NCBI GenBank assembly: GCA_964016885.1
Contig: OZ024748.1
Location: forward strand, 17,670,001-17,734,000
Direction: 5' to 3'
Source: Eledone cirrhosa
Lineage: Eukaryota
Length of the DNA stretch: 64,000 bases
The translations under genes and the position numbers were made by a program. The notes below the pieces were generated by a model, which saw only the letters and a program-made list of their open reading frames with translations, was not told where the DNA came from and did no database searches. Shown here piece after piece: positions 3,225-48,100 of this stretch. Every line of letters starts with the position of its first letter. Positions within the stretch are counted from its first letter, which is position 1.

Positions 3225-3666
3225 TACTGATATATATATATATATATATATATACATACATAAATATTTATATATATATATATAATATATATATATACAT
3301 ACATATATAAATATTTATATATATATAATATATATACATATATATATATATATACTGATATATATATATATATATATAATATGTATACATATATATACAT
3401 ATATAATATATAATATATACAATATATATATTTAATATATATATAGAATATATATATATATATAATATATAATATATATATATATATATATATGTATATA
3501 CAATATATATATATACACTATATATATACAATATATATATATACACTATATATATATATATATACACTATATATATATATTCAATATATATATATACAAT
3601 ATATACACTATATATATATATACAATATATACACTATATATATATATATTCAACATATATATATAT

Positions 3667-3713
<47 letters not shown>

Positions 3714-4083
3714 TATATATATATATTCAACATATATATATATATATAATATTGTATATATATATATATAATATATATATACAATATATATATATAATAT
3801 ATATAATATATATATACAATATATATATATAATATATATAATATATATATACAATATATATATATAATATATACATATATATAATATATATATACAATAA
3901 CCCATGCTAGCGTGGAGGAACGGACGTAAAACGGTGATGATGGTGATGATGAATATATATATATACAATATATATATATAATATATATATACAATATATA
4001 TATACAATATATATATACAATATATATATACAATATATATATACAATATATATATATAATATATATATATAATATATATATAT

Positions 4084-4140
<57 letters not shown>
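3225..4140. repeat. Degenerate (TA)n microsatellite with an embedded SINE/RTE tail remnant (~3898-3951)
   Basis: Direct reading. Confidence 0.9.
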
Positions 4141-4744
4141 ATGAACTGACAAGAAGTAAATCAAGATCCTCAAAAACATTCTTTACAATTGTGTTAAGCT
4201 CTAAGATAATCTCCTTTCTCTATCTCTACTTGAAAGATACATCTATCATTCCTTATGTTTTGTTCGATCTCCACCAATTCTGATCATGTGTTCTTGTTGT
4301 TTGACCACTGGTACTGTCTGGCTCATAAAATGTTTAAAAAATTAACATACAAGTGGCTGAGCATTCCACAAACACGTGGAACCGTCCTCATCAGAAGTAA
4401 TGGAAGTCCAGTACACATACATATACAAGAAGACACAATGGCCACTCTTGAAAATACTTTGATTATAAGACAGTTTGATCAGGACTAGTAAATATATGGA
4501 GTCATGTGGTTAGGGTGTTGGACTCAGGACCATGAAGTCGTCGATTGGATTCTTGGACCAGGTGACAAGATACTTCATTTCACACAGGTTAAATCACCCT
4601 AGAAACCTTCAATGAAACATCCAAAACATTTCATTTGGCAGAGCTTTCCATAATAGAACTGAGATTTTTATCATGAAAACACACTAGAAACCTATTTCTT
4701 CATTTATATATTGTTACTGAACATGTCTAACTTGAAGTAAAACA

Positions 4745-6455
4745 GCAGCAAAAAAAATAGTAACAAATACAGTAACCTCAAAAATAGTAAAATCAGCAAT
4801 AGCTTCAACAATAGTAATAACAACAGCAGTAGCAACAACAATAGTTACAACAAAAGCAATAGCAACAAAACAGCAAGAACAACAACAGTAACAAGAACAG
4901 TAATATCAAGAACAATAGCAATAGCAAGAACAACAGCAATAGCAACAGAACAGTAATAACAGCAACAACACCAATAATAGTAACAACAGCAATAGCAACA
5001 AACACAGTAACAGCAATAGCAACAAAAACAGTAACAACAACAATAGCAACAAAAACAGTAACAACAGCAATAGCAACAAACACAGTAACAACAGCAATAG
5101 CAACAAACACAGTAACAACAGCAATAGCAACAAACACAGGAACAACAGCAGTAGCAACAAACACAGTAACAACAACAACAATAGCAACAAACACAGTAAC
5201 AACAACAATAGCAACAAACACAGTAACAACAACAATAGCAACAAACACAGTAACAACAGCAATAGCAACAAACACAGTAACAACAAACACAGGAACAACA
5301 GCAATAGCAACAAACACAGTAACAACAGCAATAGCAACAAACACAGTAACAACAATAGCAACAACACAGTAACAACAACAATAGCAACAAACACAGTAAC
5401 AACAACAACAATAGCAACAAACACAGGAACAACAGCAATAGCAACAAACACAGTAACAACAACAATAGCAACAAACACAGTAACAACAATAGCAACAAAC
5501 ACAGTAACAACAATAGCAACAAACACAGTGACAACAACAATAGCAACAACACAGTAACAACAACAATAGCAACAAACACAGTAACAACAACAGCAATAGC
5601 AACAAACACAGTAACAACAACAATAGCAACAAACACAGTGACAACAACGATAGCAACAAACACAGTAACAACAACAATAGCAACAAACACAGTAACAACA
5701 GCAATAGCAACAAACACAGTAACAACAACAATAGCAACAAACACAGTAACAACAGCAATAGCAACAAACACAGTAACAACAATAGCAACAACACAGTAAC
5801 AACAACAATAGCAACAAACACAGTAACAACAACAGCAATAGCAACAAACACAGGAACAACAGCAATAGCAACAACACAGTAACAACAGCAATAGCAACAA
5901 ACACAGTAACAACAATAGCAACAACACAGTAACAACAACAATAGCAACAACACAGTAACAACAACAATAGCAACAAACACAGTAACAACAACAGCAATAG
6001 CAACAAACACAGTAACAACAGCAATAGCAACAAACACAGTAACAACAACAATAGCAACAACACAGTAACAACAACAATAGCAACAAACACAGTAACAACA
6101 ACAACAATAGCAACAAACACAGTAACAACAACAGCAATAGCAACAAACACAGGAACAACAGCAATAGCAACAACACAGTAACAACAGCAATAGCAACAAA
6201 CACAGTAACAACAATAGCAACAACACAGTAACAACAACAATAGCAACAAACACAGTAACAACAACAGCAATAGCAACAAACACAGTAACAACAGCAATAG
6301 CAACAAACACAGTAACAACAACAATAGCAACAAACACAGTAACAACAACAATAGCAACAAACACAGTAACAACAACAATAGCAACAACAATAGCAACAAA
6401 CACAGTGACAACAGCAATAGAAACAGTAACAAAAACAGCAACTGTAACAAAACCA
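4745..6455. repeat. (CAA)-rich minisatellite with variable ~23-30 bp unit AACAAC(A/AGC)ATAGCAACAAACACAGT
   Basis: Direct tandem repetition; accounts for the three low-complexity minus-strand ORFs. Confidence 0.9.
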
Positions 6456-6626
6456 GCATCGTTCATGTACCATATAGCAATATAGGGGGGGGGGGGTTCT
6501 ACTACATAGTCAGTGAATGAAAGTCGATATTTGAAGAAAGTATTATAACGTTAAGGCACTTATAACAACTTGATCTTTCCACTTAACATATATATATATA
6601 TATATATGGTATATGCTATATATATG

Positions 6627-6744
<118 letters not shown>

Positions 6745-6762
6745 CTTGTATGTATATATATG

Positions 6763-6808
<46 letters not shown>

Positions 6809-6817
6809 TATATATGT

Positions 6818-7097
6818 TGTTTACTCGAGAGAAGGCTACGTTGGTATGGACACGTGATGCGCATGAAAGTCGATAGCTGTATAACAAAGTGCAGGGCAAT
6901 AAAGATAGACGGTAGTCACGGAATAGGCAGACCTAGAAAAACCTGGGACGAGCTGATAAACTCCGACATCACACACTTACACCTCTCCAAGACAATGTCA
7001 CTGGACCGAGACCTTTGGCGGTACTCAGTAACAGAGAAGACCCGCCTTACCTAAATATATAGTAAAACCTACTCCAGCCAGTAGGCATCTCTAACAA
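6818..7097 (+). pseudogene. 5'-truncated RTE-clade LINE 3' end
   Basis: Translates [15 protein letters not shown]...GRPRKTW...DRDLWR...* (stop at 7054), the typical RTE ORF C-terminus. Confidence 0.8.
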
Positions 7098-8066
7098 AAT
7101 ATCTGCTTTATGTATTGTATACCTAATTAACATATACTAATTAACATATACTATTGAAATAAATATATAATTTTTAACTTAGTTAACATATAATTTATAT
7201 GCTACTACCGATGTAATACTTTATTTTATTTTTATTTGGGTTTCTTTTCCCTATTATTAACTTTAATTTAGTTATAATGTAATTAATAATCTACTACTGT
7301 TTGACTTCATAATTCTGCTTCAAATATTATAAACCTAACTAATTTACACCTTGGAAATCAATATGTTGACTATCTTTGGTTTAGTTGACATATGATTAAT
7401 GGTATACTTTTTTATTTTGTGATGCATAGATTTCGTATTTCCTAGCATTGAAAATATGTAAGAACATACATTGAATTAAGATATGGAAAATATTATAGGT
7501 TTCTTGAAACATATATTTACTTTGATCCCCTTCTCCAAACCCCCCCCTTTCCCCCATACTATTATCATCTGTTTTTGTAAGTGTATATGTATGAATTTGG
7601 GTAGATGGGTGTCTATATAGTTTTTTTTTTGGTATTTTTTTTTTTTTTTGGTATTTATTTCTAGATATAAAAATACATATATGAGCATGTAAATATGAAT
7701 GTAAGATTGAGTGTGTATATATGATTGTACATACATATGTATGTATATGTATGTATATATATGTATTATATATGTACGTGTATGTGAATGTGTGGTATAT
7801 ATATGTGTAGGTATATGTATATATGTGTGCGTATGTGTATGCTTATATATAGGAATATATATGTGTGTATATATGTATATATGTATATGCGTGTTTGCAT
7901 GTATGTGTATATGGGTTCTGTATATATTTGTATGTCTCTCTATTTATATGTTTATCTTCGTATCTATGTGATATATGTGTGTGTGTGTGCATGTATGCAT
8001 ATGTATGTGTTTATGTGTGTTTGTATGTGTGTGTGTGTATATATATGTATGTATTTGCGCACACTC

Positions 8067-8104
<38 letters not shown>

Positions 8105-8192
8105 GAGTGTGTATGTGTGTCTGTATGTGTGTGCGTGTGTATATATGTGTATATATATATATATGTGTATGTATGTGTATGTGTGTGTATAT

Positions 8193-8236
<44 letters not shown>

Positions 8237-8375
8237 ATATAGGTGTCTATGTGTGAATATATGTCTTTATTCGTATGTGTGTATTTATATATGTTTATAT
8301 TTAGGTGTATGTATGTATGTGTATGTATGTATGTATATGTATGTGTATGTATGTATATGTGTATATGTGTGTATA

Positions 8376-8412
<37 letters not shown>

Positions 8413-8504
8413 CTTTATTATTATTGTAATATAACTTATGTGTATATGTGTATAAGTGAGGTTGTGTATGTATATATACTATGTGTATATATAAGGGTAA
8501 TGAA

Positions 8505-8535
<31 letters not shown>

Positions 8536-8634
8536 CATGTCTGTATTTTATGTGCGTGTGTATATATATATATATATGTGTATGTGTGTATGTATGTATG
8601 TATGTATGCATATATGTGTACGTGTGTGTATGTT

Positions 8635-8682
<48 letters not shown>

Positions 8683-8793
8683 TGGATGTTTGTATGTGTT
8701 TTCATGGTGGTATGAGTGTGGGATATATATGTTTATGTATAAGTATATGTATGTGTATGTATATATATATGAGTCTATGTGTGTGTGTGTATA

Positions 8794-8842
<49 letters not shown>

Positions 8843-9964
8843 ATGTGTGTATGTGTTGCGCGTGTGTGTGTCCGTATTTTTATCTTTTTATCTTTTTATA
8901 TGTGTATGTGTATGTTCGTGTAAATGTATGTGTGTGTATGACAGTATAGGTATGTGTGTATGTATGTATGTGTAGATATCTCTATGTGCGCGTACATGTA
9001 CGTATGTGTATGTATATCTGTATGCGTATGTACATTATATTATATGTAATATATTTTATTGTTTTTATTTTTTTATTTTTCATAATTTATAGATACATTT
9101 ATATTAGGCTGTCTGTCTGACAACCTAATACTGACCCCTCCCCCCCCCTCCCACCTAATTTCTGTATCTTGATCTTGAAATGTGCGTACCAGTGTGTTTA
9201 TGTGAGTGACTTAATTTCTATTTGCTTATGATTTTATATCCACATATATAAATGTGAGTGGGGGGTGTGTGTGTGTTTGTGTGTTCGTGGTTATGTGTAT
9301 ATTTATATATATACGCACATGTATGTGTGATTATACTGATATGTGTGAGTATGAAAAAAATATATTTATATGCTTGACTACATAAGTATCATTGCGTTTC
9401 TTATCAGCGCATTAAGCTTACAGAGATATTAACCTTGACATTTTTTATTTGCATCCATCTTTTTAGTATGCACATACATATTATACACACATTATTGTAA
9501 AATGTGTGTAGGGTTTTACATGTATATACACACACCAAACTGCTTTTTAACCCTTTGTGTTTTCATTGGTCAATTTTGAACTGATATTTTGAATTGTTGT
9601 TATTATCAATAAATATACTTCATTATTTCTGAAGACGGCGTATATATGTGTTAGGTATGTATATTTAATCTTGATAATTTGTATAATTTTGTATAATTTT
9701 GTACATAGATCTGTTAAATATGCATACCAATTATAGCACATATATGCCCTAGAAACGATCGTTAAATAGTGAACTTTTTTTGTTTAATATAAGGAATTGT
9801 TTGTTCATTATTTGTTTAATATTTTATCTTGACTCTGTATACCGTTTATCTTTCACCGAAATTGGATTTTCATTACATCTCTTCTTTCCATGATATCCGG
9901 AATACATTGAGTTCTTCATACGGATTGGACACTACCGTAAACTCTTGGTAGATTTATCTACATA
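7098..9964 (+). repeat. 5' pseudo-LTR of the PLE
   Basis: AATATCTGCTTTATG...GGTAGATTTATCTACATA repeated at 13295-16152; offset drifts only from 6197 to 6188. Confidence 0.93.
9619..9773 (+). ncRNA. Type I hammerhead ribozyme with extended stem II (pLTR copy 1)
   Basis: Stem I TTCATTATTT/AAATAGTGAA (10 bp); CTGAAGA 9629-9635; stem II 9637-9668 pairs with 9714-9748; GAAAC-GATC-GTT 9752-9763. Confidence 0.75.
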
Positions 9965-10116
9965 ATTTTGCTCCTATTTTCACGGAAATATTCGTATTTT
10001 TGTACTGTATGTGTGTATTAATTTTATATTTATGTATATACATATATATATGTATGATTTTGTAAACCCATATACATTTAGTTGAGCTCTTTCAATTGTC
10101 CATCATCCATATCACA

Positions 10117-12558
10117 ATGGAAAAACAATATTTAGGAACCTCCTTAAAAAACATACCAATACCTTCTAAGGACGACTTCTTACTCCTTATGATTCAGAAA
10201 ACTAATAATTTTATCAGAAGGGTTAGATGGAGAGCCTACCACTTTGATAGAAAATCTAAACAAGCAGATCGGAAATATATGTATGATTTCAACACTTACA
10301 AGAATCCACCACACAACTTTTTACTTGAAGACTTCGAGAAAGACCTTTTTAATTTAATTAAACATCTCAAATTTAAAAAGTATAAATCCGTCTTTCAAAA
10401 GGACCTTGATTCTACCCTATTGGACCTAAAAAAGTCTAAAAAAATCCATGTCCACTCGGACAAAACTGGTAACTTGTATCATATGGATATTGAACATTAT
10501 AATGAGTTCATATATAAAGAACTCAGAAAAAGTTATAAAAAATCTAATAATGCGTCACTCACCAATATCAACAACAAAACACACAACATAGTAAAAAAAC
10601 TAAATATTGAAGATAGAACTGAACCTTTGGCATTGAGAAGTCCACACTTCAACCTGAAAGATCACAAATCTAACTTTAACTCTAATCCTTCTATTAGACT
10701 TATATGTCCCTCCAAATCAGATATTGGAATAATTAGCAAAAAAATTTTAGATAGAGTCATCCCACAAATAAGAAAATACGTTATTTTACCACTCTGGGAA
10801 AATACCTCCCAGGTAATTAATTGGTTTAAAAATATTAGGTGTAAATCTTCTGCTTCTTTCCTACAGTTTGATATAGATAACTATTATTCTTCTATATCAC
10901 CCATACTCCTGAACAAAGCATTAATATTTGCTAAAAATAGATCTAATTTAACTTCGGATGACATTAACATTATTACACATGCTAGACAAACACTTATTGA
11001 ATTTCAGAATGAATACTGGACCAGAAACACTTATAGTAATCTTTTTGATATTACTATGGGTTCAAGCGATTCTGCCCAAATTACTGATCTTGTGGGCCTC
11101 TTTCTCCTTTTCAACATAAATGCCTCTTTTCCCCACCTCAAAGGTGGTTTATATCGTGATGACTGTCTTCTTCTTTCTAACAACCTTAGCCTTTCAGAAA
11201 TCGAAAAAAACAAAAAGCATATTAGAACTTTCCTTAAGGACTATTATAATCTTAATATTACTTTTGAAAAAACAAGTAAAGTAGTAAATTTCCTAGATAT
11301 AACTTTAGATTTAGCTACGGGTATATACCAACCTTACCATAAACCTAACCAAAACTTACATTACATACACTCACAATCTAATCACCCTAAATCTATCCTT
11401 AAAAACCTTGCATATAATATATCACTTAGAATTTCTAACCTTTCTTCTAACCAAGATGTATTTGATAAAAATGCGACCTTTTATAATGAAGCTCTAGATA
11501 GAAGTGGCCACAAAAATAGATTAGAGTATATAACTTCTACTAAAAATACTGAAAACATACAGCATAATATTACCAACAAACACCAAATGAAAGGTACACA
11601 CCTAAATGCCACCCACAGTATACCCCAAAATACTAAATCTTCTAATATAAAGTATAGTAACCCTCAAAAAACTACTCATCATAAGACTATAATAAATATT
11701 AATAATAAAACTCCTAATAAAAAAGATAAAACACCTAAATCTACAAATATAACTAAAAATAGTTGTGGTGAGATCATTAACATTATTCCTCCTAGTAAAA
11801 ATCATGATACAACATATAAAAATAATAAAAATAATAAACAACATAGAAACCGTAATAGACGAGTTACTTGGTATAATGCTCCTTTTAATTTACAAGTTAA
11901 GGATAATATTGCTAAAAAATTTTTTTATATCCTTGAGAAAAACTTCCCGCCAAACCACAAATACCATCAAATCTTAAATAGGTCTACAGTTAAATTCTCA
12001 TATTCTACAACAAATAACATAAAACAAAATATAAGTGCATATAATGCATATAAATGTAAGAAAACTATAAGTATACCACCAGTACATCAAATTAACAATA
12101 ATATCTCCTCAAATACAGAATTAACGAAAGGATGTAACTGTAGAAACAAAACAAACTGCCCATTAAAAGGGAATTGTCTTGTTAACAACATAGTCTATAA
12201 ATGTAATGTTAAAACTAAAGATTCTATTTGCTCATATATAGGAGCTACCTCTAACAATTTTAAGACAAGGTATAATACCCACAAACATAGCTTTAAAAAT
12301 GCCGCACTGGCTAATACAACATCTCTAGCAGAAAAAATCAATAGTTATAAAAATAAAAATATAAAATATGATTTGACCTGGAGTGTGCTCAAAAGAGCCA
12401 CCCCTTATCAAAATAATAGAAAGGAATGTAGATTATGTTCCCAAGAACTATTTGAAATAATGAAGTCTAGGGATATCTTATTAAATAAAAGACAGGAATT
12501 AATTATATCGTGTAATCATAAACTAAAAAAAACATTTAAATATTATAAACCTAATTAA
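10117..12558 (+). CDS. PLE polyprotein: reverse transcriptase plus GIY-YIG endonuclease (813 aa from first ATG)
   Basis: SLKNIPIPSK N-terminus, SDKT, FDIDNYYSSI (motif A), TMGSSDSAQI (B), YRDD (C), FLDITL, YHKP..SNHP thumb, CNCRNKTNCPLKGNC linker, IVY...YIG..T...F..R...H, CRLC..E...LN.R.E; no stops or frameshifts. Confidence 0.95.
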   Translation: MEKQYLGTSLKNIPIPSKDDFLLLMIQKTNNFIRRVRWRAYHFDRKSKQADRKYMYDFNTYKNPPHNFLLEDFEKDLFNLIKHLKFKKYKSVFQKDLDSTLLDLKKSKKIHVHSDKTGNLYHMDIEHYNEFIYKELRKSYKKSNNASLTNINNKTHNIVKKLNIEDRTEPLALRSPHFNLKDHKSNFNSNPSIRLICPSKSDIGIISKKILDRVIPQIRKYVILPLWENTSQVINWFKNIRCKSSASFLQFDIDNYYSSISPILLNKALIFAKNRSNLTSDDINIITHARQTLIEFQNEYWTRNTYSNLFDITMGSSDSAQITDLVGLFLLFNINASFPHLKGGLYRDDCLLLSNNLSLSEIEKNKKHIRTFLKDYYNLNITFEKTSKVVNFLDITLDLATGIYQPYHKPNQNLHYIHSQSNHPKSILKNLAYNISLRISNLSSNQDVFDKNATFYNEALDRSGHKNRLEYITSTKNTENIQHNITNKHQMKGTHLNATHSIPQNTKSSNIKYSNPQKTTHHKTIININNKTPNKKDKTPKSTNITKNSCGEIINIIPPSKNHDTTYKNNKNNKQHRNRNRRVTWYNAPFNLQVKDNIAKKFFYILEKNFPPNHKYHQILNRSTVKFSYSTTNNIKQNISAYNAYKCKKTISIPPVHQINNNISSNTELTKGCNCRNKTNCPLKGNCLVNNIVYKCNVKTKDSICSYIGATSNNFKTRYNTHKHSFKNAALANTTSLAEKINSYKNKNIKYDLTWSVLKRATPYQNNRKECRLCSQELFEIMKSRDILLNKRQELIISCNHKLKKTFKYYKPN

Positions 12559-13294
12559 TAACATTATTCTAGAATTTAATTTAATTTAAATGTTAGTTAA
12601 CCTATAAATTTAATTTAATTAATATTTTATTACAGATGAGAAAATATTATGTAATCATTAATTTTGAAAAACCTTTAAATATTACTAATATATATTCAGT
12701 AATTTAATTTATAGATTAATTTTAACTTATTTTAACCTTTTATTATAATTTTTTAATTTAGTTTAACCTTTTATTATAAAATTTTTTTTATTATAATTCT
12801 TTTACAGATAAAATATAACAAAATAATATCATGTATCCTATGACGGAGAAAGAATTTTTAGTATTATTGACCTAATTAATATACATTTTGGAAATATATT
12901 TATTATTTGGTTTTAGCTTTAATCAACCTAAAACTTTAATTTTAATTTTAATTTGCTTAAAATTAGTATCCTTGTACAGACGAATTGCAGAATTTCATGT
13001 AATCATAGAATGGGATGTGTTTTTGGATATATACCTAGTTAATATATTCTGTGCAAATTTTTTGAAAAAGATATGTATATCTATATGTATATGTATATGT
13101 GTGTATTGTATGTGTATCTGTATGTATATTTATGTGACTATATATGTATGTATGTGTGTATATATATGTATATATATATATATATATGTGTATGTATATG
13201 TATATGTATGTGTATGTGTATGTATATGTATGTGTATGCGTATTAATTTTGATTTTTATTTGCATATAATTATATTATGCTATTGATGAAATAC

Positions 13295-14382
13295 AATATC
13301 TGCTTTATGTATTGTATACCTAATTAACATATACTAATTAACATATACTATTGAAATAAATATATAATTTTTAACTTAGTTAACATATAATTTATATGCT
13401 ACTACCGATGTAATACTTTATTTTATTTTTATTTGGGTTTCTTTTCCCTATTATTAACTTTAATTTAGTTATAATGTAATTAATAATCTACTACTGTTTG
13501 ACTTCATAATTCTGCTTCAAATATTATAAACCTAACTAATTTACACCTTGGAAATCAATATGTTGACTATCTTTGGTTTAGTTGACATATGATTAATGGT
13601 ATACTTTTTTATTTTGTGATGCATAGATTTCGTATTTCCTAGCATTGAAAATATGTAAGAACATACATTGAATTAAGATATGGAAAATATTATAGGTTTC
13701 TTGAAACATATATTTACTTTGATCCCCTTCTCCAAACCCCCCCCTTTCCCCCATACTATTATCATCTGTTTTTGTAAGTGTATATGTATGAATTTGGGTA
13801 GATGGGTGTCTATATAGTTTTTTTTTTGGTATTTTTTTTTTGGTATTTATTTCTAGATATAAAAATACATATATGAGCATGTAAATATGAATGTAAGATT
13901 GAGTGTGTATATATGATTGTACATACATATGTATGTATATGTATGTATATATATGTATTATATATGTACGTGTATGTGAATGTGTGGTATATATATGTGT
14001 AGGTATATGTATATATGTGTGCGTATGTGTATGCTTATATATAGGAATATATATGTGTGTATATATGTATATATGTATATGCGTGTTTGCATGTATGTGT
14101 ATATGGGTTCTGTATATATTTGTATGTCTCTCTATTTATATGTTTATCTTCGTATCTATGTGATATATGTGTGTGTGTGTGCATGTATGCATATGTATGT
14201 GTTTATGTGTGTTTGTATGTGTGTGTGTGTATATATATGTATGTATTTGCGCACACTCACATACATATATATATATATATATATATATGTATGTGAGTGT
14301 GTATGTGTGTCTGTATGTGTGTGCGTGTGTATATATGTGTATATATATATATATGTGTATGTATGTGTATGTGTGTGTATAT

Positions 14383-14426
<44 letters not shown>

Positions 14427-14565
14427 ATATAGGTGTCTATGTGTGAATATATGTCTTTATTCGTATGTGTGTATTTATATATGTTTATATTTAGGTGTAT
14501 GTATGTATGTGTATGTATGTATGTATATGTATGTGTATGTATGTATATGTGTATATGTGTGTATA

Positions 14566-14602
<37 letters not shown>

Positions 14603-14694
14603 CTTTATTATTATTGTAATATAACTTATGTGTATATGTGTATAAGTGAGGTTGTGTATGTATATATACTATGTGTATATATAAGGGTAATGAA

Positions 14695-14725
<31 letters not shown>

Positions 14726-14824
14726 CATGTCTGTATTTTATGTGCGTGTGTATATATATATATATATGTGTATGTGTGTATGTATGTATGTATGTATGCA
14801 TATATGTGTACGTGTGTGTATGTT

Positions 14825-14866
<42 letters not shown>

Positions 14867-14981
14867 CATCTGGATGTTTGTATGTGTTTTCATGGTGGTA
14901 TGAGTGTGGGATATATATGTTTATGTATAAGTATATGTATGTGTATGTATATATATATGAGTCTATGTGTGTGTGTGTATA

Positions 14982-15030
<49 letters not shown>

Positions 15031-16146
15031 ATGTGTGTATGTGTTGCGCGTGTGTGTGTCCGTATTTTTATCTTTTTATCTTTTTATATGTGTATGTGTA
15101 TGTTCGTGTAAATGTATGTGTGTGTATGACAGTATAGGTATGTGTGTATGTATGTATGTGTAGATATCTCTATGTGCGCGTACATGTACGTATGTGTATG
15201 TATATCTGTATGCGTATGTACATTATATTATATGTAATATATTTTATTGTTTTTATTTTTTTATTTTTCATAATTTATAGATACATTTATATTAGGCTGT
15301 CTGTCTGACAACCTAATACTGACCCCTCCCCCCCCCTCCCACCTAATTTCTGTATCTTGATCTTGAAATGTGCGTACCAGTGTGTTTATGTGAGTGACTT
15401 AATTTCTATTTGCTTATGATTTTATATCCACATATATAAATGTGAGTGGGGGGTGTGTGTGTGTTTGTGTGTTCGTGGTTATGTGTATATTTATATATAT
15501 ACGCACATGTATGTGTGATTATACTGATATGTGTGAGTATGAAAAAAATATATTTATATGCTTGACTACATAAGTATCATTGCGTTTCTTATCAGCGCAT
15601 TAAGCTTACAGAGATATTAACCTTGACATTTTTTATTTGCATCCATCTTTTTAGTATGCACATACATATTATACACACATTATTGTAAAATGTGTGTAGG
15701 GTTTTACATGTATATACACACACCAAACTGCTTTTTAACCCTTTGTGTTTTCATTGGTCAATTTTGAACTGATATTTTGAATTGTTGTTATTATCAATAA
15801 ATATACTTCATTATTTCTGAAGACGGCGTATATATGTGTTAGGTATGTATATTTAATCTTGATAATTTGTATAATTTTGTATAATTTTGTACATAGATCT
15901 GTTAAATATGCATACCAATTATAGCACATATATGCCCTAGAAACGATCGTTAAATAGTGAACTTTTTTTGTTTAATATAAGGAATTGTTTGTTCATTATT
16001 TGTTTAATATTTTATCTTGACTCTGTATACCGTTTATCTTTCACCGAAATTGGATTTTCATTACATCTCTTCTTTCCATGATATCCGGAATACATTGAGT
16101 TCTTCATACGGATTGGACACTACCGTAAACTCTTGGTAGATTTATC

Positions 16147-16152
<6 letters not shown>
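13295..16152 (+). repeat. 3' pseudo-LTR of the PLE
   Basis: Direct repeat of 7098-9964, followed immediately by (TA)n. Confidence 0.93.
15807..15961 (+). ncRNA. Type I hammerhead ribozyme with extended stem II (pLTR copy 2)
   Basis: Same sequence as 9619-9773 at offset 6188. Confidence 0.75.
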
Positions 16153-17180
<1,028 letters not shown>

Positions 17181-27894: not shown

Positions 27895-28935
27895 GTGATA
27901 GGACTAGGGGCCCTATCATAAAAACTTCGGGGAACCCTCTTATGAAATGCCACCTTGTAGAAGGCCAACTAAGCCTGTATATGTGTGACCTATAACAACA
28001 ATGTGATAAGACTGGGAGCTCCTAACATTAAAACAATCGAGAAACCTCCTATGAGATGCAGCTTTGTAAGAGGCCAACTAAAGCCATGTAAGTGTGAGTT
28101 GTATGAAAACCATAATAGTACTGGAGACTTCTATCATTAAAACACCTGGCAAACCTCCTGTGAGATGCAACCTCATAATAGGCCAGCTAAATCCACATAG
28201 GTTTCAGCTGTAAAAACAACTTCATATAACTGAGGTCCCAAGAAAACTCCTATGAAATGTAAATTCAAAGGAAGCTAACTAAACCTGCATAGGTATGACC
28301 TGTGACAATATGATAGGATTGAGGTCCCATATCATTAAAACACCTGGGAAACCTCCTATGAGATGCAAACTTGTAGGAGATTAACTAAACCTTCATAGGT
28401 GTGATCTCTAATGACAATATGATATGACTGAGGGTTCCTAACATTAAACACACAAGAAACTTCCAATGAGATGCAATCTCATAGGAGACTAGCTAAACCT
28501 TCATAGGTGTGATCTGTAACGACAATATGATATGACTGAGGGCTCCTAACATTAAACACTCAAGAAACCTCCCATGAGATGCAATCTCATAGGAGACTAG
28601 CTAAACCTTCATAGGTGTGATCTCTAATGACAATATGATATGACTGAGGGCTCCTAACATTAAACACTCAAGAAACCTCCCATGAGATGCAATCTCATAG
28701 GAGATTAACTAAACCTTCATAGGTGTGATCTGTAACGACAATATGATATGACTGAGGGCTCCTAACATTAAACACTCAAGAAACCTCCCATGAGATGCAA
28801 TCTCATAGGAGATTAACTAAACCTTCATAGGTGTGATCTGTAACGACAATATGATATGACTGAGGGCTCCTAACATTAAACACTCAAGAAACCTCCCATG
28901 AGATGCTAACTAAACCTGCATAGGTGTGATCTGTA
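27895..28935 (+). repeat. 108-bp tandem array (~9-10 units) directly behind a degenerate SINE head (~27775-27890)
   Basis: TAAACCTTCATAGGTGTGATC recurs at 28386, 28494, 28602, 28710, 28818; earlier units diverged. Confidence 0.9.
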
Positions 28936-32224: not shown

Positions 32225-34035
32225 ATAGTGTGGACTGGATGCTATTTACCATGGCACTGAAACAGCCACTTAGCTGGGTGAACTAGGTGCCTTTTTTGTG
32301 TCATCAGCACAACCACCTTACAGGGTGGGCTGGGTGCTTTTTGTTGTGTCATCAGCACAACCACCTTACAGAGTTGACTAGATGCTTTTTGTCATGCCAC
32401 CAGTACGACACCTTACATGGTGAACTGGGTGCTTTTTTTGTTGTTTCACCAGCACAACCAGCTTACAGGGTGGACTGGATGCTTTTTATCATGTCACCAG
32501 CATGTCCCCTTTACAAAACGAACTGGGTGCTTTTTTGTCATGTCACCAGCCTGACCACTAACATGGTGAACAGGGTGCTTTTTTGTCATGTCACGAGGAC
32601 AACCACCTTAACATGGTGAACTGGGTGACTTTTGTTATGTCACCAGCACAACCACCTTAACATGGTGGACTGGGTGACTTTTGTTATGTCACCAGCACAA
32701 CCACCTTAACATGGTGAACTGGGTGACTTTTGTCATGTCACGAGGACAACCACCTTAACATGGTGAACTGGGTGACTTTTGTTATGTCACCAGCACAACC
32801 ACCTTAACATGGTGGACTGGGTGACTTTTGTTATGTCACCAGCACAACCACCTTAACATGGTGGACTGGGTGACTTTTGTTATGTCATCAGCACAACCAC
32901 CTTAACATGGTGAACAGGGTGCTTTTTTGTCATGTCACGAGGACAACCACCTTAACATGGTGAACTGGGTGACTTTTGTTATGTCACCAGCACAACCACC
33001 TTAACATGGTGGACTGGGTGACTTTTGTTATGTCACCAGCACAACCACCTTAACATGGTGAACTGGGTGACTTTTGTTATGTCACCAGCACAACCACCTT
33101 AACATGGTGAACTGGGTGACTTTTGTTATGTCACCAGCACAACCACCTTAACATGGTGAACTGGGTGACTTTTGTCATGTCACGAGGACAACCACCTTAA
33201 CATGGTGGACTGGGTGACTTTTGTTATGTCACCAGCACAACCACCTTAACATGGTGGACTGGGTGACTTTTGTTATGTCACCAGCACAACCACCTTAACA
33301 TGGTGAACTGGGTGACTTTTGTCATGTCACGAGGACAACCACCTTAACATGGTGGACTGGGTGACTTTTGTTATGTCACCAGCACAACCACCTTAACATG
33401 GTGGACTGGGTGACTTTTGTTATGTCACCAGCACAACCACCTTAACATGGTGAACTGGGTGACTTTTGTCATGTCACGAGGACAACCACCTTAACATGGT
33501 GAACTGGGTGACTTTTGTTATGTCACCAGCACAACCACCTTAACATGGTGGACTGGGTGACTTTTGTTATGTCACCAGCACAACCACCTTAACATGGTGA
33601 ACTGGGTGACTTTTGTTATGTCACCAGCACAACCACCTTAACATGGTGAACTGGGTGACTTTTGTTATGTCACCAGCACAACCACCTTAACATGGTGGAC
33701 TGGGTGACTTTTGTTATGTCACCAGCACAACCACCTTAACATGGTGAACTGGGTGACTTTTGTCATGTCACGAGGACAACCACCTTAACATGGTGAACTG
33801 GGTGACTTTTGTTATGTCACCAGCACAACCACCTTAACATGGTGGACTGGGTGACTTTTGTTATGTCACCAGCACAACCACCTTAACATGGTGAACTGGG
33901 TGACTTTTGTCATGTCACGAGGACAACCACCTTAACATGGTGAACTGGGTGACTTTTGTTATGTCACCAAGCACAACCACCTTAACATGGTGGACTGGGT
34001 GCTTTTTGTTGTGACCCTAGCACGACCACCTTACT
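32225..34035. repeat. 49-bp minisatellite expanded from the body of a SINE-B-related element
   Basis: Unit GACTTTTGTTATGTCACCAGCACAACCACCTTAACATGGTGGACTGGGT; homogeneous ~32570-34010; SINE tail at ~32065-32225. Confidence 0.92.
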
Positions 34036-41959: not shown

Positions 41960-42185
41960 TTTCACATCACGCATAACACAACTACCAAGTGAAAGACCTG
42001 CTAATCAAGTCCTGTATTGGTACCTTCATGGAAAAGGCTGTAGAGGAGGGTCGAAGATGATCTGGTGGTGACAGACAATCAACACTCCTGAAACCCATCA
42101 ACAAGAGCTGGAATGATGTATTGATAGATGCAACTGACCTTGGTCATTGGAGCACTTTGGCTGCCTCGTGTGTCTCAAGACATGG
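41960..42185 (+). pseudogene. Decayed RTE LINE C-terminus, progenitor of the 71-bp satellite
   Basis: ITQLPSERPANQVLYWYLHGKGCRGGSKMIW, frameshift, then LLKPINKSWNDVLIDATDLGHWSTLAASCVSRHG. Confidence 0.7.
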
Positions 42186-45100
42186 GATGTATTGATAGAT
42201 GCAACTGACCTTGGTCATTGGAGCACTTTGGCTGGCTCGTGTGTCTCAAGACATGGGATGTATTGATAGATGCAACTGACCTTGGTCATTGTAGCACTTT
42301 GGCTGCCTCATGTGTCTCAAGATGTTGGATGTATTGATAGATGCAACTGACCTTGGTCATTGGAGCACTGTGGCTGGCTCATGTGTCTCAAGACATGGGA
42401 TGTATTGATAGATGCAATTGACCTTGGTCATTGTAGCACTTTGGCTGCCTCATGTGTCTCAAGACGTGGGATGTATTGATAGATGTAACTGACCGTGGTC
42501 ATTGTAGCACTTTGGCTGCCTCATATGTCTCAAGACATGGGATGTATTGATAGATGTAACTGACCGTGGTCATTGTAGCACTGTGGCTGCCTCATATGTC
42601 TCAAGACATGGGATGTATTGATAGATGTAACTGACCGTGGTCATTGTAGCACTGTGGCTGGCTCATGTGTCTCAAGACATGGGATGTATTGATAGATGCA
42701 ATTGACCTTGGTCATTGTAGCACTGTGGCTGCCTCATATGTCTCAAGACATGGGATGTATTGATAGATGCAATTGACCTTGGTCATTGGAGCACTGTGGC
42801 TGGCTCATGTGTCTCAAGACATGGGATGTATTGATAGATGCAATTGACCTTGGTCATTGGAGCACTGTGGCTGGCTCATGTGTCTCAAGATGTTGGATGT
42901 ATTGATAGATGCAACTGACCTTGGTCATTGTAGCACTTTGGCTGCCTCATCTGTCTCAAGACATGGGATGTATTGATAGATGCAACTGACCTTGGTCATT
43001 GTAGCACTTTGGCTGCCTCATGTGTCTCAAGACATGGGATGTATTGATAGATGCAACTGACCTTGGTCATTGTAGCACTTTGGCTGCCTCATGTGTCTCA
43101 AGACATGGGATGTATTGATAGATATAACTGACCTTGGTCATTGTAGCACTTTGGCTGCCTCATGTGTCTCAAGACATGGGATGTATTGATAGATGCAACT
43201 GACCGTGGTCATTGGAGCACTTTGGCTGCCTCATATGTCTCAAGACATGGGATGTATTGATAGATGCAATTGACCTTGGTCATTGTAGCACTTTGGCTGC
43301 CTCATGTGTCTCAAGACATGGGATGTATTGATAGATGCAACTGACCTTGGTCATTGTAGCACTGTGGCTGGCTCATGTGTCTCAAGATGTTGGATGTATT
43401 GATAGATGCAACTGACCTTGGTCATTGTAGCACTTAGGCTGCCTCATATGTCTCAAGACATGGGATGTATTGATAGATGCAACTGACCTTGGTCATTGGA
43501 GCACTTTGGCTGCCTCATGTGTCTCAAGACATGGGATGTATTGATAGATGCAACTGACCTTGGTCATTGTAGCACTTTGGCTGCCTCATGTGTCTCAAGA
43601 CATGGGATGTATTGATAGATGCAACTGACCTTGGTCATTGTAGCACTTTGGCTGCCTCATGTGTCTCAAGACATGGGATGTATTGATAGATGCAACTGAC
43701 CTTGGTCATTGTAGCACTGTGGCTGGCTCATGTGTCTCAAGACATGGGATGTATTGATAGATGCAACTGACCTTGGTCATTGTAGCACTTTGGCTGCCTC
43801 ATGTGTCTCAAGACATGGGATGTATTGATAGATGCAACTGACCTTGGTCATTGTAGCACTTTGGCTGCCTCATGTGTCTCAAGACATGGGATGTATTGAT
43901 AGATGCAACTGACCTTGGTCATTGTAGCACTTTGGCTGCCTCATGTGTCTCAAGACATGGGATGTATTGATAGATGTAACTGACCTTGGTCATTGTAGCA
44001 CTTTGGCTGCCTCATGTGTCTCAAGACATGGGATGTATTGATAGATGCAACTGACCTTGGTCATTGTAGCACTTTGGCTGCCTCATGTGTCTCAAGACAT
44101 GGGATGTATTGATAGATGCAACTGACCTTGGTCATTGTAGCACTGTGGCTGCCTCATGTGTCTCAAGATGTTGGATGTATTGATAGATGCAACTGACCTT
44201 GGTCATTGTAGCACTTTGGCTGCCTCATGTGTCTCAAGACATGGGATGTATTGATAGATGTAACTGACCTTGGTCATTGTAGCACTTTGGCTGCCTCATG
44301 TGTCTCAAGACATGGGATGTATTGATAGATGTAACTGACCTTGGTCATTGTAGCACTTTGGCTGCCTCATGTGTCTCAAGACATGGGATGTATTGATAGA
44401 TGCAACTGACCTTGGTCATTGTAGCACTGTGGCTGCCTCATGTGTCTCAAGATGTTGGATGTATTGATAGATGCAACTGACCTTGGTCAATGTAGCACTT
44501 TGGCTGCCTCATGTGTCTCAAGACATGGGATGTATTGATAGATGTAACTGACCTTGGTCATTGTAGCACTTTGGCTGCCTCATGTGTCTCAAGACATGGG
44601 ATGTATTGATAGATGCAACTGACCTTGGTCATTGTAGCACTTTGGCTGCCTCATGTATCTCAAGACATGGGATGTATTGATAGATGTAACTGACCTTGGT
44701 CATTGTAGCACTTTGGCTGCCTCATGTGTCTCAAGACATGGGATGTATTGATAGATGCAACTGACCTTGGTCATTGTAGCACTTTGGCTCCCTCATGTGT
44801 CTCAAGACATGGGATGTATTGATAGATGCAACTGACCTTGGTCATTGTAGCACTGTGGCTGGCTCATGTGTCTCAAGATGTTGGATGTATTGATAGATGC
44901 AACTGACCTTGGTCATTGTAGCACTTTGGCTCCCTCATGTGTCTCAAGACATGGGATGTATTGATAGATGCAACTGACCTTGGTCATTGGAGCACTTTGG
45001 CTGCCTCATGTGTCTCAAGACATGGGATGTATTGATAGATGCAACTGACCTTGGTCATTGTAGCACTGTGGCTGCCTCATGTGTCTCAAGATGTTGGATG

Positions 45101-48100
45101 TATTGATAGATGCAACTGACCTTGGTCATTGTAGCACTTTGGCTCCCTCATGTGTCTCAAGACATGGGATGTATTGATAGATGCAATTGACCTTGCTCAT
45201 TGTAGCACTTTGGCTCCCTCATGTGTCTCAAGACATGGGATGTATTGATAGATGCAATTGACCTTGGTCATTGTAGCACTGTGGCTCCCTCATGTGTCTC
45301 AAGATGTTGGATGTATTGATAGATGCAATTGACCTTGGTCATTGTAGCACTTTGGCTGCCTCATGTGTCTCAAGATGTTGGATGTATTGATAGATGCAAT
45401 TGACCTTGGTCATTGTAGCACTGTGGCTGGCTCGTGTGTCTCAAGACATGGGATGTATTGATAGATGCAACTGACCTTGGTCATTGTAGCACTGTGGCTG
45501 CCTCATATGTCTCAAGATGTTGGATGTATTGATAGATGCAATTGACCTTGGTCATTGTAGCACTTTGGCTGCCTCATGTGTCTCAAGACATGGGATGTAT
45601 TGATAGATGCAATTGACCTTGGTCATTGTAGCACTTTGGCTCCCTCATGTGTCTCAAGATGTTGGATGTATTGATAGATGCAACTGACCTTGGTCATTGT
45701 AGCACTTTGGCTGCCTCATGTGTCTCAAGACATGGGATGTATTGATAGATGCAACTGACCTTGGTCATTGTAGCACTTTGGCTGCCTCATGTGTCTCAAG
45801 ACATGGGATGTATTGATAGATGCAATTGACCTTGGTCATTGTAGCACTTTGGCTGCCTCATGTGTCTCAAGACATGGGATGTATTGATAGATGCAACTGA
45901 CCTTGGTCATTGTAGCACTGTGGCTGCCTCATGTGTCTCAAGACATGGGATGTATTGATAGATGCAACTGACCTTGGTCATTGTAGCACTGTGGCTGCCT
46001 CATGTGTCTCAAGATGTTGGATGTATTGATAGATGCAACTGACCTTGGTCATTGTAGCACTGTGGCTGGCTCATGTGTCTCAAGACATGGGATGTATTGA
46101 TAGATGCAACTGACCGTGGTCATTGTAGCACTGTGGCTGGCTCATGTGTCTCAAGACATGGGATGTATTGATAGATGTAACTGACCGTGGTCATTGTAGC
46201 ACTTTGGCTGCCTCATATGTCTCAAGACATGGGATGTATTGATAGATGTAACTGACCGTGGTCATTGTAGCACTTTGGCTGCCTCATGTGTCTCAAGACA
46301 TGGGATGTATTGATAGATGCAACTGACCTTGGTCATTGTAGCACTGTGGCTGGCTCATGTGTCTCAAGATGTTGGATGTATTGATAGATGCAACTGACCT
46401 TGGTCATTGTAGCACTTTGGCTCCCTCATGTGTCTCAAGACATGGGATGTATTGATAGATGCAACTGACCTTGGTCATTGGAGCACTTTGGCTGCCTCAT
46501 GTGTCTCAAGACATGGGATGTATTGATAGATGCAACTGACCTTGGTCATTGTAGCACTGTGGCTGCCTCATGTGTCTCAAGATGTTGGATGTATTGATAG
46601 ATGCAACTGACCTTGGTCATTGTAGCACTTTGGCTCCCTCATGTGTCTCAAGACATGGGATGTATTGATAGATGCAATTGACCTTGGTCATTGTAGCACT
46701 TTGGCTCCCTCATGTGTCTCAAGACATGGGATGTATTGATAGATGCAATTGACCTTGGTCATTGTAGCACTGTGGCTCCCTCATGTGTCTCAAGATGTTG
46801 GATGTATTGATAGATGCAATTGACCTTGGTCATTGTAGCACTTTGGCTGCCTCATGTGTCTCAAGATGTTGGATGTATTGATAGATGCAATTGACCTTGG
46901 TCATTGTAGCACTGTGGCTGGCTCGTGTGTCTCAAGACATGGGATGTATTGATAGATGCAACTGACCTTGGTCATTGTAGCACTGTGGCTGCCTCATATG
47001 TCTCAAGATGTTGGATGTATTGATAGATGCAATTGACCTTGGTCATTGTAGCACTTTGGCTGCCTCATGTGTCTCAAGACATGGGATGTATTGATAGATG
47101 CAACTGACCTTGGTCATTGTAGCACTTTGGCTGCCTCATGTGTCTCAAGACATGGGATGTATTGATAGATGCAACTGACCTTGGTCATTGTAGCACTTTG
47201 GCTGCCTCATGTGTCTCAAGACATGGGATGTATTGATAGATGCAATTGACCTTGGTCATTGTAGCACTTTGGCTCCCTCATGTGTCTCAAGATGTTGGAT
47301 GTATTGATAGATGCAACTGACCTTGGTCATTGTAGCACTTTGGCTGCCTCATGTGTCTCAAGACATGGGATGTATTGATAGATGCAACTGACCTTGGTCA
47401 TTGTAGCACTTTGGCTGCCTCATGTGTCTCAAGACATGGGATGTATTGATAGATGCAATTGACCTTGGTCATTGTAGCACTTTGGCTGCCTCATGTGTCT
47501 CAAGACATGGGATGTATTGATAGATGCAAATGACCTTGGTCATTGTAGCACTGTGGCTGCCTCATGTGTCTCAAGACATGGGATGTATTGATAGATGCAA
47601 CTGACCTTGGTCATTGTAGCACTGTGGCTGCCTCATGTGTCTCAAGATGTTGGATGTATTGATAGATGCAACTGACCTTGGTCATTGTAGCACTGTGGCT
47701 GGCTCATGTGTCTCAAGACATGGGATGTATTGATAGATGCAACTGACCGTGGTCATTGTAGCACTGTGGCTGGCTCATGTGTCTCAAGACATGGGATGTA
47801 TTGATAGATGTAACTGACCGTGGTCATTGTAGCACTTTGGCTGCCTCATATGTCTCAAGACATGGGATGTATTGATAGATGTAACTGACCGTGGTCATTG
47901 TAGCACTTTGGCTGCCTCATGTGTCTCAAGACATGGGATGTATTGATAGATATAACTGACCTTGGTCATTGTAGCACTTTGGCTGCCTCATATGTCTCAA
48001 GACATGGGATGTATTGATAGATGTAACTGACCGTGGTCATTGGAGCACTTTGGCTGCCTCATGTGTCTCAAGACATGGGATGTATTGATAGATGCAACTG

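Follow-up and report, generated by a model that had tools for sequence, protein, structure and literature searches.

A very young Hydra-type Penelope-like element in Eledone cirrhosa whose insertions suggest copying of one RNA from two fixed sites

Introduction

Penelope-like elements (PLEs) of the Hydra clade, which carry a C-terminal endonuclease (EN+), include Hydra-1_Obim with a length of 2507 bp, and members of the clade are generally shorter than 3 kb (PMC8557442). The clade is characterized by a DKT motif, RWK, a CxCx5C linker, CxxC and CxH around the conserved E and N, lack of the CCHH motif of other PLE endonucleases, and (TA)n targets (PMC8557442). Here, we analyzed such an element at positions 7098-16152 of a 64,000-nucleotide stretch of Eledone cirrhosa DNA (contig OZ024748.1, positions 17,670,001 to 17,734,000; hereafter, the window, whose numbering is used throughout), together with its relatives in the same genome. 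Judged by its motifs, the element belongs to the known Hydra clade, of which it is an unusually long variant.

How PLEs regenerate their pseudo long terminal repeats (pLTRs) and inverted arms is an open question, and Schostak et al. saw no obvious mechanism for pLTR regeneration (PMC2377424). It is already known that one of the inverted ends can carry a tail (PMC3846280; PMC8557442). In an anole PLE, two internal start sites lie at the borders of the tail and serve the extension of both strands, the protein being predicted to be dimeric (PMC11167929). A circular-template route was proposed tentatively in 2014 (PMC4209133), with no demonstration for PLEs so far, and retrozyme RNAs are circularized by RtcB (PMC7229834). 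The Eledone family is young, numerous, well assembled and barcoded, and therefore lends itself to counts of template identity, end pairing and break points.

Results

The sequence-only reading of the window had described an 813-amino acid open reading frame (ORF), with reverse transcriptase (RT) and GIY-YIG endonuclease, between direct repeats of 2867 and 2858 bp that differ only by small length changes. Alignment and translation bore this out: the ORF is uninterrupted, and the repeats that bracket it align as four ungapped blocks (offsets 6197, 6192, 6190 and 6188) with 0 substitutions and three slippage indels (5 T, AT and TA). Each repeat was measured to hold 1358 bp of purine/pyrimidine-alternating TA/TG sequence, against an earlier estimate of ~1.3 kb. 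Because there are no substitutions between the repeats, the age of the copy is capped at roughly 0.15 million years (My) under a borrowed calibration (Jukes-Cantor distance 0.09 = 25 My; PMC13282606), and its recency had also been claimed earlier; the copy is part of a large recent family. We are highly confident that the window copy is an intact, very young Hydra-type PLE (Table 1).

The hammerhead, the two fixed 3' ends with their pairing, and the foreign piece at the 5' junction had escaped the sequence-only reading. The window copy is single-armed and uses the distal 3' end, which adjoins (TA)n as the earlier proposal of (TA)n targeting would have it; the 5' side does not, and instead adjoins a 287-bp internal piece of a LINE, which from its translation we take to be of the RTE type. 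This piece is without both natural ends, overlaps the PLE by 3 nt at 7098-7100, and is 100% identical to copies in loci L134 and L009, which continue past both its edges. The left and right outer flanks form one compound TA array, with a common 20-mer found only at 6744 and 16189 in the 1.28 Mb of DNA fetched. From the sequence, the RTE piece was likely captured by a template switch during insertion of the window copy. Four other sequencing runs did not show the RTE-PLE junction, which carries no weight either way. The LINE copies themselves (L134:8233-8519 and L009:431-715) represent a very young family, distant copies of which are identical over 287 bp.

A genome search for other copies, as had been suggested, revealed a large recent family. 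All 111 RT matches scored were at least 98% identical, most with a full open frame. Exact-motif counts were 283 for the 5' motif of the ORF, 399 for the subfamily hammerhead, 5939 for the distal end plus TA and 1945 for the proximal end plus TA, with 0 for controls; the wider family comprises at least 5939 insertions in the 3.0-Gb genome. The sample consisted of 20-kb stretches for 30 of the 111 RT loci, 40 hammerhead loci (in list order from the first 100 places, skipping insertions >10 kb or already sampled) and six multi-unit arrays; one RT locus and four arrays were excluded from arm counts as belonging to other subfamilies. A second Hydra-type family (loci L121-L140, e.g., L121:2945-6668) has many intact copies of 737-742 amino acids, 46% identical in the RT half, with a unit of ~3.7-4.0 kb, a short-stem hammerhead and a 96-nt tail. 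In run X1, read contigs covered the hammerhead and tail region (9554-10061) ~70x more deeply than the ORF start, as fits very many short end-only copies.

We then analyzed where the arms of each insertion end. Arms ended at unit position 6188 (16152) or 6051 (16015), 137 nt apart and always running into TA, and every two-armed insertion sampled had one distal and one proximal end (52/52; 19, 31 and 2), while loci with only one end seen comprised 16 distal and 4 proximal cases. Along the first 80.8 Mb of C1, an outward distal partner was present within 30 kb for 19 of 27 proximal ends, and no distal end out of 100 was paired with another one. Two apparent proximal-proximal pairs occurred among 100 listed proximal ends, one of them real (L159) and the other consisting of two neighbors. 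The second family showed one of each end in 4/4 cases, 96 nt apart, with short motifs at both ends common to both families. No published count of such strict pairing was found in the open-access PLE literature, in which older Penelope papers are only partly covered.

The two arms of an insertion also resembled each other closely. In 43 of 46 within-insertion arm pairs sharing at least 500 non-repetitive bases, the two arms were more alike than either was to any other insertion in the sample, the divergence between arms being mostly 0-0.2%, compared to a median of ~1.2% against other insertions. Private substitutions were spread evenly over the pLTR (12), main copy (8) and inverted arm (9). Arms mostly met head to head with a 1-8 nt overlap, and in three multi-lap arrays 0 variants were common to matching laps of both arms. 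Together, these sequence comparisons suggest that both target ends copy one RNA, which we consider likely.

The break points of the arms were clustered. Of 114 arms, 24 begin at unit 5835-5857, with a mode at 5846, which is the A of an initiator-like site. These 24 are without exception first-lap arms, come from short insertions and include some from an older subfamily. In the hammerhead-selected sample, 24 of the 59 first-lap arms reaching unit 5857 stop at 5835-5857, while none of 25 later-lap passes does so (Fisher p 4e-5). Most pLTRs (21/29) exceed the 343 bp allowed by a start-to-end linear transcript; twelve later-lap arms stop within ~260 nt after a full lap, two of them at exactly one unit. 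Transcription thus likely starts at unit ~5846, as judged from these break points. Since a sequence-bound pause would act on every lap, and a physical RNA 5' end only on linear transcripts, we think, with moderate confidence, that the long copies come from a template without an RNA 5' end, probably a circular one.

The element carries a type I hammerhead near its 3' end, which is repeated identically in both pLTRs. It has a 10-bp stem I, a non-canonical stem II and a 2-bp stem III with a palindromic loop, and a cut is predicted from the sequence; a hammerhead motif in the pLTR is a feature of PLEs. The region folds with a z of -5.3. Among 18 variants, 96% of cells were paired and two pairs had changed on both sides, a statistically weak result from related sequences; with older relatives (16 variants), five pairs were double-changed, one of them in stem I. 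Rfam returned no hammerhead family at threshold for the window motif, and the Hydra-1_Obim hammerhead pattern had 0 matches in this genome. The second family's hammerhead has a short stem II in the same junction layout. Around the predicted cut (unit 5972-5991), 0 changes were found in 140 segments, and arms end at the cut in two loci (5988, 5989). In a small number of DNA reads, 85-87 nt of the long stem II (9649-9738) are missing; these may derive from relatives with a short one.

A candidate 5' untranslated region (UTR) intron would begin 33 nt after the predicted start with a donor-like GGTATGT, which is invariant in 16/16 family-1 variants, whose stem II pairing it also takes part in, as well as in 20/20 distinct family-2 sequences amid variable flanks. 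The motif GTTGAGC before the ATG is kept in both families, and the intron would remove 8 of 9 upstream ATGs. We infer splicing here from the sequence; because the candidate intron would take out both RT start sites, only unspliced RNA could be copied. A tRNA-like SINE lies on the minus strand at the predicted start in two older copies (L155:200-1500 and L156:200-1450) and at the proximal end in a third (L149:200-1500); its presence in both arms of L155 indicates that the element carries it.

Table 1. Features of the element and of its flanks in the window
Feature	Positions	Strand	Remarks
Left part of compound (TA)n target array	6588-6813	.	Tandem Repeats Finder (TRF); 20-mer common to right flank
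Internal 287-bp piece of very young RTE-type LINE	6814-7100	+	Identity to L134 and L009 copies
Upstream pLTR, broken-off second lap (unit 3331-6188)	7098-9964	+	
Type I hammerhead motif	9619-9773	+	Stem I 9619-9628 with 9764-9773; core CUGAAGA 9629-9635; 113-nt stem II 9637-9749; GAAA 9752-9755; predicted cut between 9763 and 9764
Initiator-like site	9620-9626	+	Predicted transcription start ~9622 (unit 5846), from arm break points
Candidate 5' UTR intron	9655-10086	+	Donor at 9655, acceptor AG at 10081 or 10086; both RT start sites lie inside, as does most of the hammerhead
Full 6188-bp unit, first lap	9965-16152	+	Start and end recur in other insertions
813-aa ORF: RT, N/K/T-rich linker, CxCx5C, C-terminal GIY-YIG endonuclease	10117-12558	+	
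3594-bp 3' UTR, 43% TA/TG simple sequence	12559-16152	+	
Downstream pLTR, last 2858 bp of unit	13295-16152	+	
Main compound TA/TG microsatellite block	13902-15270	+	Second copy ~7710-9082; TRF
Second hammerhead copy, identical to 9619-9773	15807-15961	+	Predicted cut between 15951 and 15952
137-nt tail, proximal 3' end (16015, unit 6051) to distal 3' end (16152, unit 6188)	16016-16152	+	
Right part of (TA)n target array	16153-17179	.	TRF

The protein supports the clade assignment proposed earlier from DKT, CxCx5C and (TA)n. It contains DKT at residue 115, RWR, YRDD, CNCRNKTNC (CxCx5C, residues 673-681) and VYK...YIG, and CRLC at 771 and CNH at 799 (CxxC, CxH) flank the conserved E and N. RWR, in the N-terminal RWK column, is a conservative variant. 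A search gave 117 homologues among 7999 scored candidates, with DK[TS] in 93 of the 96 long ones and with YRDD and YIG conserved; the single ORF with RT and C-terminal GIY-YIG is that of an EN+ PLE. The RT profile match was weak (E 0.002), look-alikes of the endonuclease region were GIY-YIG proteins at 0.96-0.97, and a Pfam scan of the window protein returned 0 families. No conserved CxxC lies between the two GIY-YIG strands in the alignment, compared by eye with the Neptune rows, and at motif level, again by eye, the protein follows the named Hydra proteins (both PMC8557442 supplement). A quick tree, built from sequences other than named clade references, groups it with the second family. Among sampled copies the ORF has a pN/pS of 0.18 and no stop.

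The sampled loci also show what is expected of PLEs, namely partial tandems with pLTRs, an inverted arm and a tail on one end, and 51 of 56 element ends are flanked by TA tracts, as in the Hydra clade. Membership in Naiad/Chlamys was ruled out by the C-terminal endonuclease, DKT and hammerhead (that group has an N-terminal endonuclease, DKA and no canonical hammerhead), and membership in Neptune, Nematis or Penelope-Poseidon by DKT and the linker (those have DKG and a CX2-5CxxC linker or none). An N/K/T-rich insertion of ~100 amino acids between the RT thumb and the linker (11560-11870) is absent in most homologues; asparagine-rich inserts occur in Adineta Penelopes (PMC3846280).

We next compared pLTR length between insertions. 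The unit boundaries of the window copy recur in other insertions, while the upstream repeat measures 140-5180 bp in 29 arms and 18-45 bp in four more, with up to three laps in arrays. The pLTR is therefore an unfinished second lap whose length is set by the break-off point and is not a property of the element, and the earlier idea of a giant pLTR as such a property was not supported. What sets the element apart is its 3.6-kb 3' UTR. In young subfamilies the UTR is 3.6-4.3 kb long, of which 1.5-2.3 kb is simple sequence, in units of 6188-6908 bp. Three older relatives (76-85% protein identity), which are much shorter, have ~1.2-1.75 kb from ORF to end, including a SINE, with 32-248 bp of simple sequence, their UTR coming to ~1.1 kb with hardly any TA/TG, and the second family has a 1.45-kb UTR in a unit with 4% simple sequence. 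Because the older relatives, the second family and published Hydra elements are short or nearly without the block, the sequences indicate that it grew late, within the young-subfamily lineage. The family thereby documents a Hydra-type element whose length doubled as microsatellites expanded in its UTR, with mobility retained. Assembly of the UTR from captured host repeats was rejected, as no unique UTR piece matched outside the family in the 1.28 Mb fetched. A 108-bp part (7489-7596 / 13681-13788) does match very deep reads with different flanks and is shared with another abundant repeat.

The sequence-only reading had further proposed that the element disperses microsatellites as cargo and is a possible source of the host's simple repeats. 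The first part stands for long copies, with which the block travels: 24 of 71 arms carry >300 bp of simple-sequence cargo. Only 2 of 17 distal-end loci (list order, two already known skipped), however, carry the block, the mean over all 17 being 418 bp of simple sequence. Over 5939 insertions, the cargo comes to ~2.5 Mb (bootstrap 0.15-6.1 Mb), or 0.08% of the genome, whereas host flanks contain 16-24% simple sequence, an estimate biased to insertion neighborhoods. Lengthening of the target tracts by insertion was also ruled out, since the TA flanks on the two sides of an insertion, when summed (median 244 bp over 23 loci), are in line with length-weighted host tracts (P 0.58). We estimate that the element supplies at most a few percent of host simple repeats; the family is a passenger of host slippage, and the idea that its cargo explains the host's load was removed. 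TA arrays with a regularly repeated short interruption adjoin element ends at L141:9480-9760 and in the upstream flanks of L068 and L007-L008; they are not longer than expected overall.

The TA runs of the element are biased toward TG, with A>G versus T>C sites numbering 14 to 0 and 25 to 3. ADAR editing was rejected as the cause, because host tracts, which pass through no RNA stage, show the same local polarity (537 to 32 in TG context, with the opposite excess of 305 to 29 in CA context), and because 6 A>G-type changes are private to some arms. Slippage suffices for this bias.

Discussion

The Eledone element shares with the Hydra clade DKT, RW[K/R], CxCx5C, CxxC / CxH around E and N, the C-terminal GIY-YIG, (TA)n and a hammerhead near the 3' end. 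It differs in its unit of 6.2-6.9 kb, versus generally <3 kb (a size that is descriptive only), its microsatellite-rich UTR of 3.6-4.3 kb, its thousands of insertions, its 113-nt stem II, versus short hairpins in the published table, and RWR for RWK. Like Drosophila virilis Penelope (PMC2377424) and the Adineta Penelopes (PMC3846280), it has a partial tandem, a variably cut upstream copy, an inverted arm, a tail on one inverted end and a start in the pLTR with an intron soon after, at 46 bp in Penelope (PMC2377424) versus a predicted 33 bp here. Unlike in those elements, the tail measures 137 nt (96 nt in family 2) versus 30-40 nt, the pairing is counted and nearly strict, and start and intron are predicted. 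Anolis Poseidon PAc (PMC11167929) likewise has two internal RT starts bounding the tail, extends both target strands and uses an AT-rich target, but its starts lie in the ORF, a few tens of nucleotides apart, with no strand-to-site pairing in vitro, whereas in Eledone they lie upstream of the ORF, each end pairing with one of them. A type I hammerhead and tandem copies are also found in non-LTR retrozymes (PMC7229834; Li et al. 2026 preprint), together with the circle-based spread that we propose for the Eledone element. Retrozymes are, however, 170-400 nt long and non-coding, and their circles have been shown (PMC7229834), while the Eledone element is a 6.2-kb autonomous one with a putative circle.

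The unit with its ORF and UTR, the two fixed ends and their one-of-each pairing, and the shared haplotype and break points of the arms were all observed directly. As a full explanation, we favor with moderate confidence one in which a (TA)n tract is cut and its two ends both copy one RNA, starting from two fixed sites, with long copies probably deriving from circular unit-length RNA. Transcription would start at ~9622 in the pLTR; the spliced form would yield protein, while the unspliced form would keep the hammerhead and both start sites. Two hammerhead cuts would free a unit-length RNA, to be ligated into a circle. The endonuclease would cut (TA)n, after which one DNA end would prime at the distal and the other at the proximal site. 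Each cDNA would extend to a variable point, in many cases beyond one lap, with the pLTR as the unfinished lap, and the cDNA ends would join head to head via 1-8 nt of microhomology, or one would join the target directly (in the window copy, via the captured RTE piece). Uncut linear transcripts primed near their 5' end would yield only short two-armed copies, and the microsatellites would be passive cargo, grown by slippage in the UTR of the youngest subfamilies. A more specific model of two-ended rolling-circle reverse transcription, with a hammerhead circle, a dimer priming both target ends and intron splicing choosing between mRNA and template, is possible, and we put it forward tentatively. 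If true, it would answer two questions, how Penelope pLTRs are renewed and why the intron is retained, the record being thousands of barcoded insertions. The family provides exact RNA predictions for the start, the cut, the circle junction, at which 15951 would be ligated to 9764, and the intron.

Several observations weigh against copying from one circular RNA. The anole PLE does not need its hammerhead in vitro, where uncut RNA is the main template (PMC11167929), and multi-unit loci, at ~15% of the ORF-motif loci listed, are common enough to serve as linear donors. Skipping insertions >10 kb inflates the 24/59 rate, although at a corrected rate of 24/85 the chance of 0/25 is still ~3e-4. No RNA sequencing run is listed as containing the element. 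L159, found by a targeted search, is one true proximal-proximal insertion. Some variants are common to the laps of one arm only (3 substitutions and 4 indels in L114-117; 1 and 1 in L105-107), a pattern suggestive of separate templates or of later recombination in part of the arrays, so that a single template fits imperfectly, and local gene conversion or assembly polishing could inflate the likeness of arms.

Both DNA ends might instead copy one long linear RNA, from uncut read-through, multi-unit or long-pLTR donors, with the circle unneeded and the hammerhead incidental. Such an RNA would explain the pairing and shared haplotypes as well, in keeping with the in vitro preference for uncut RNA (PMC11167929) and the existence of multi-unit arrays, but we consider it unlikely, given that no later-lap arm stops at the predicted start (0/25), that no variant is common to matching laps of both arms, and that truncation only shortens arrays, yet many haplotypes have internally uniform long tandems. 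A hammerhead-cut linear monomer, with the RT reaching its 5' end and then jumping to the 3' end of that monomer or of a sister, would be functionally close to a circle. The arms that end at the cut in two loci are in its favor, and the RT does switch templates, as in the RTE capture and the fill-in at junctions; the lack of a scar at the cut site in 140 segments and of arm pairs from clearly different donors (0/46) makes it quite improbable. That the element has an intrinsically giant pLTR and is a main source of host microsatellites could appeal to the block in long copies and the size of the wider family, yet the variable pLTR length, the minute share of the cargo beside the host's own simple sequence, the older relatives and sister family without the block and the target tracts that were not lengthened leave this reading very little room. 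An assembly artefact is unlikely because the repeats differ at three microsatellite lengths, the outer junctions differ, and the architecture recurs with different break points at other loci; in addition, an independent restriction site-associated DNA run has raw reads in which the end at 9964 continues into TA (656 loose ends). The repeats are identical outside slippage sites, and no long read was seen across the locus, but with unique break points at dozens of loci and fixed ends genome-wide, artefact or later segmental duplication is hardly credible as the origin of the repeats.

Other repeats

Apart from the element, the window contains a 15-kb satellite (42115-57090; 71-bp unit, 211 copies, 96% alike) and smaller satellite arrays of 49 bp (32277-34033) and 108 bp (28239-28906). 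In the flanking DNA of other loci, fragments of at least one further Hydra-like family were found at L133:~9200-9500 and L080:5298-5440.

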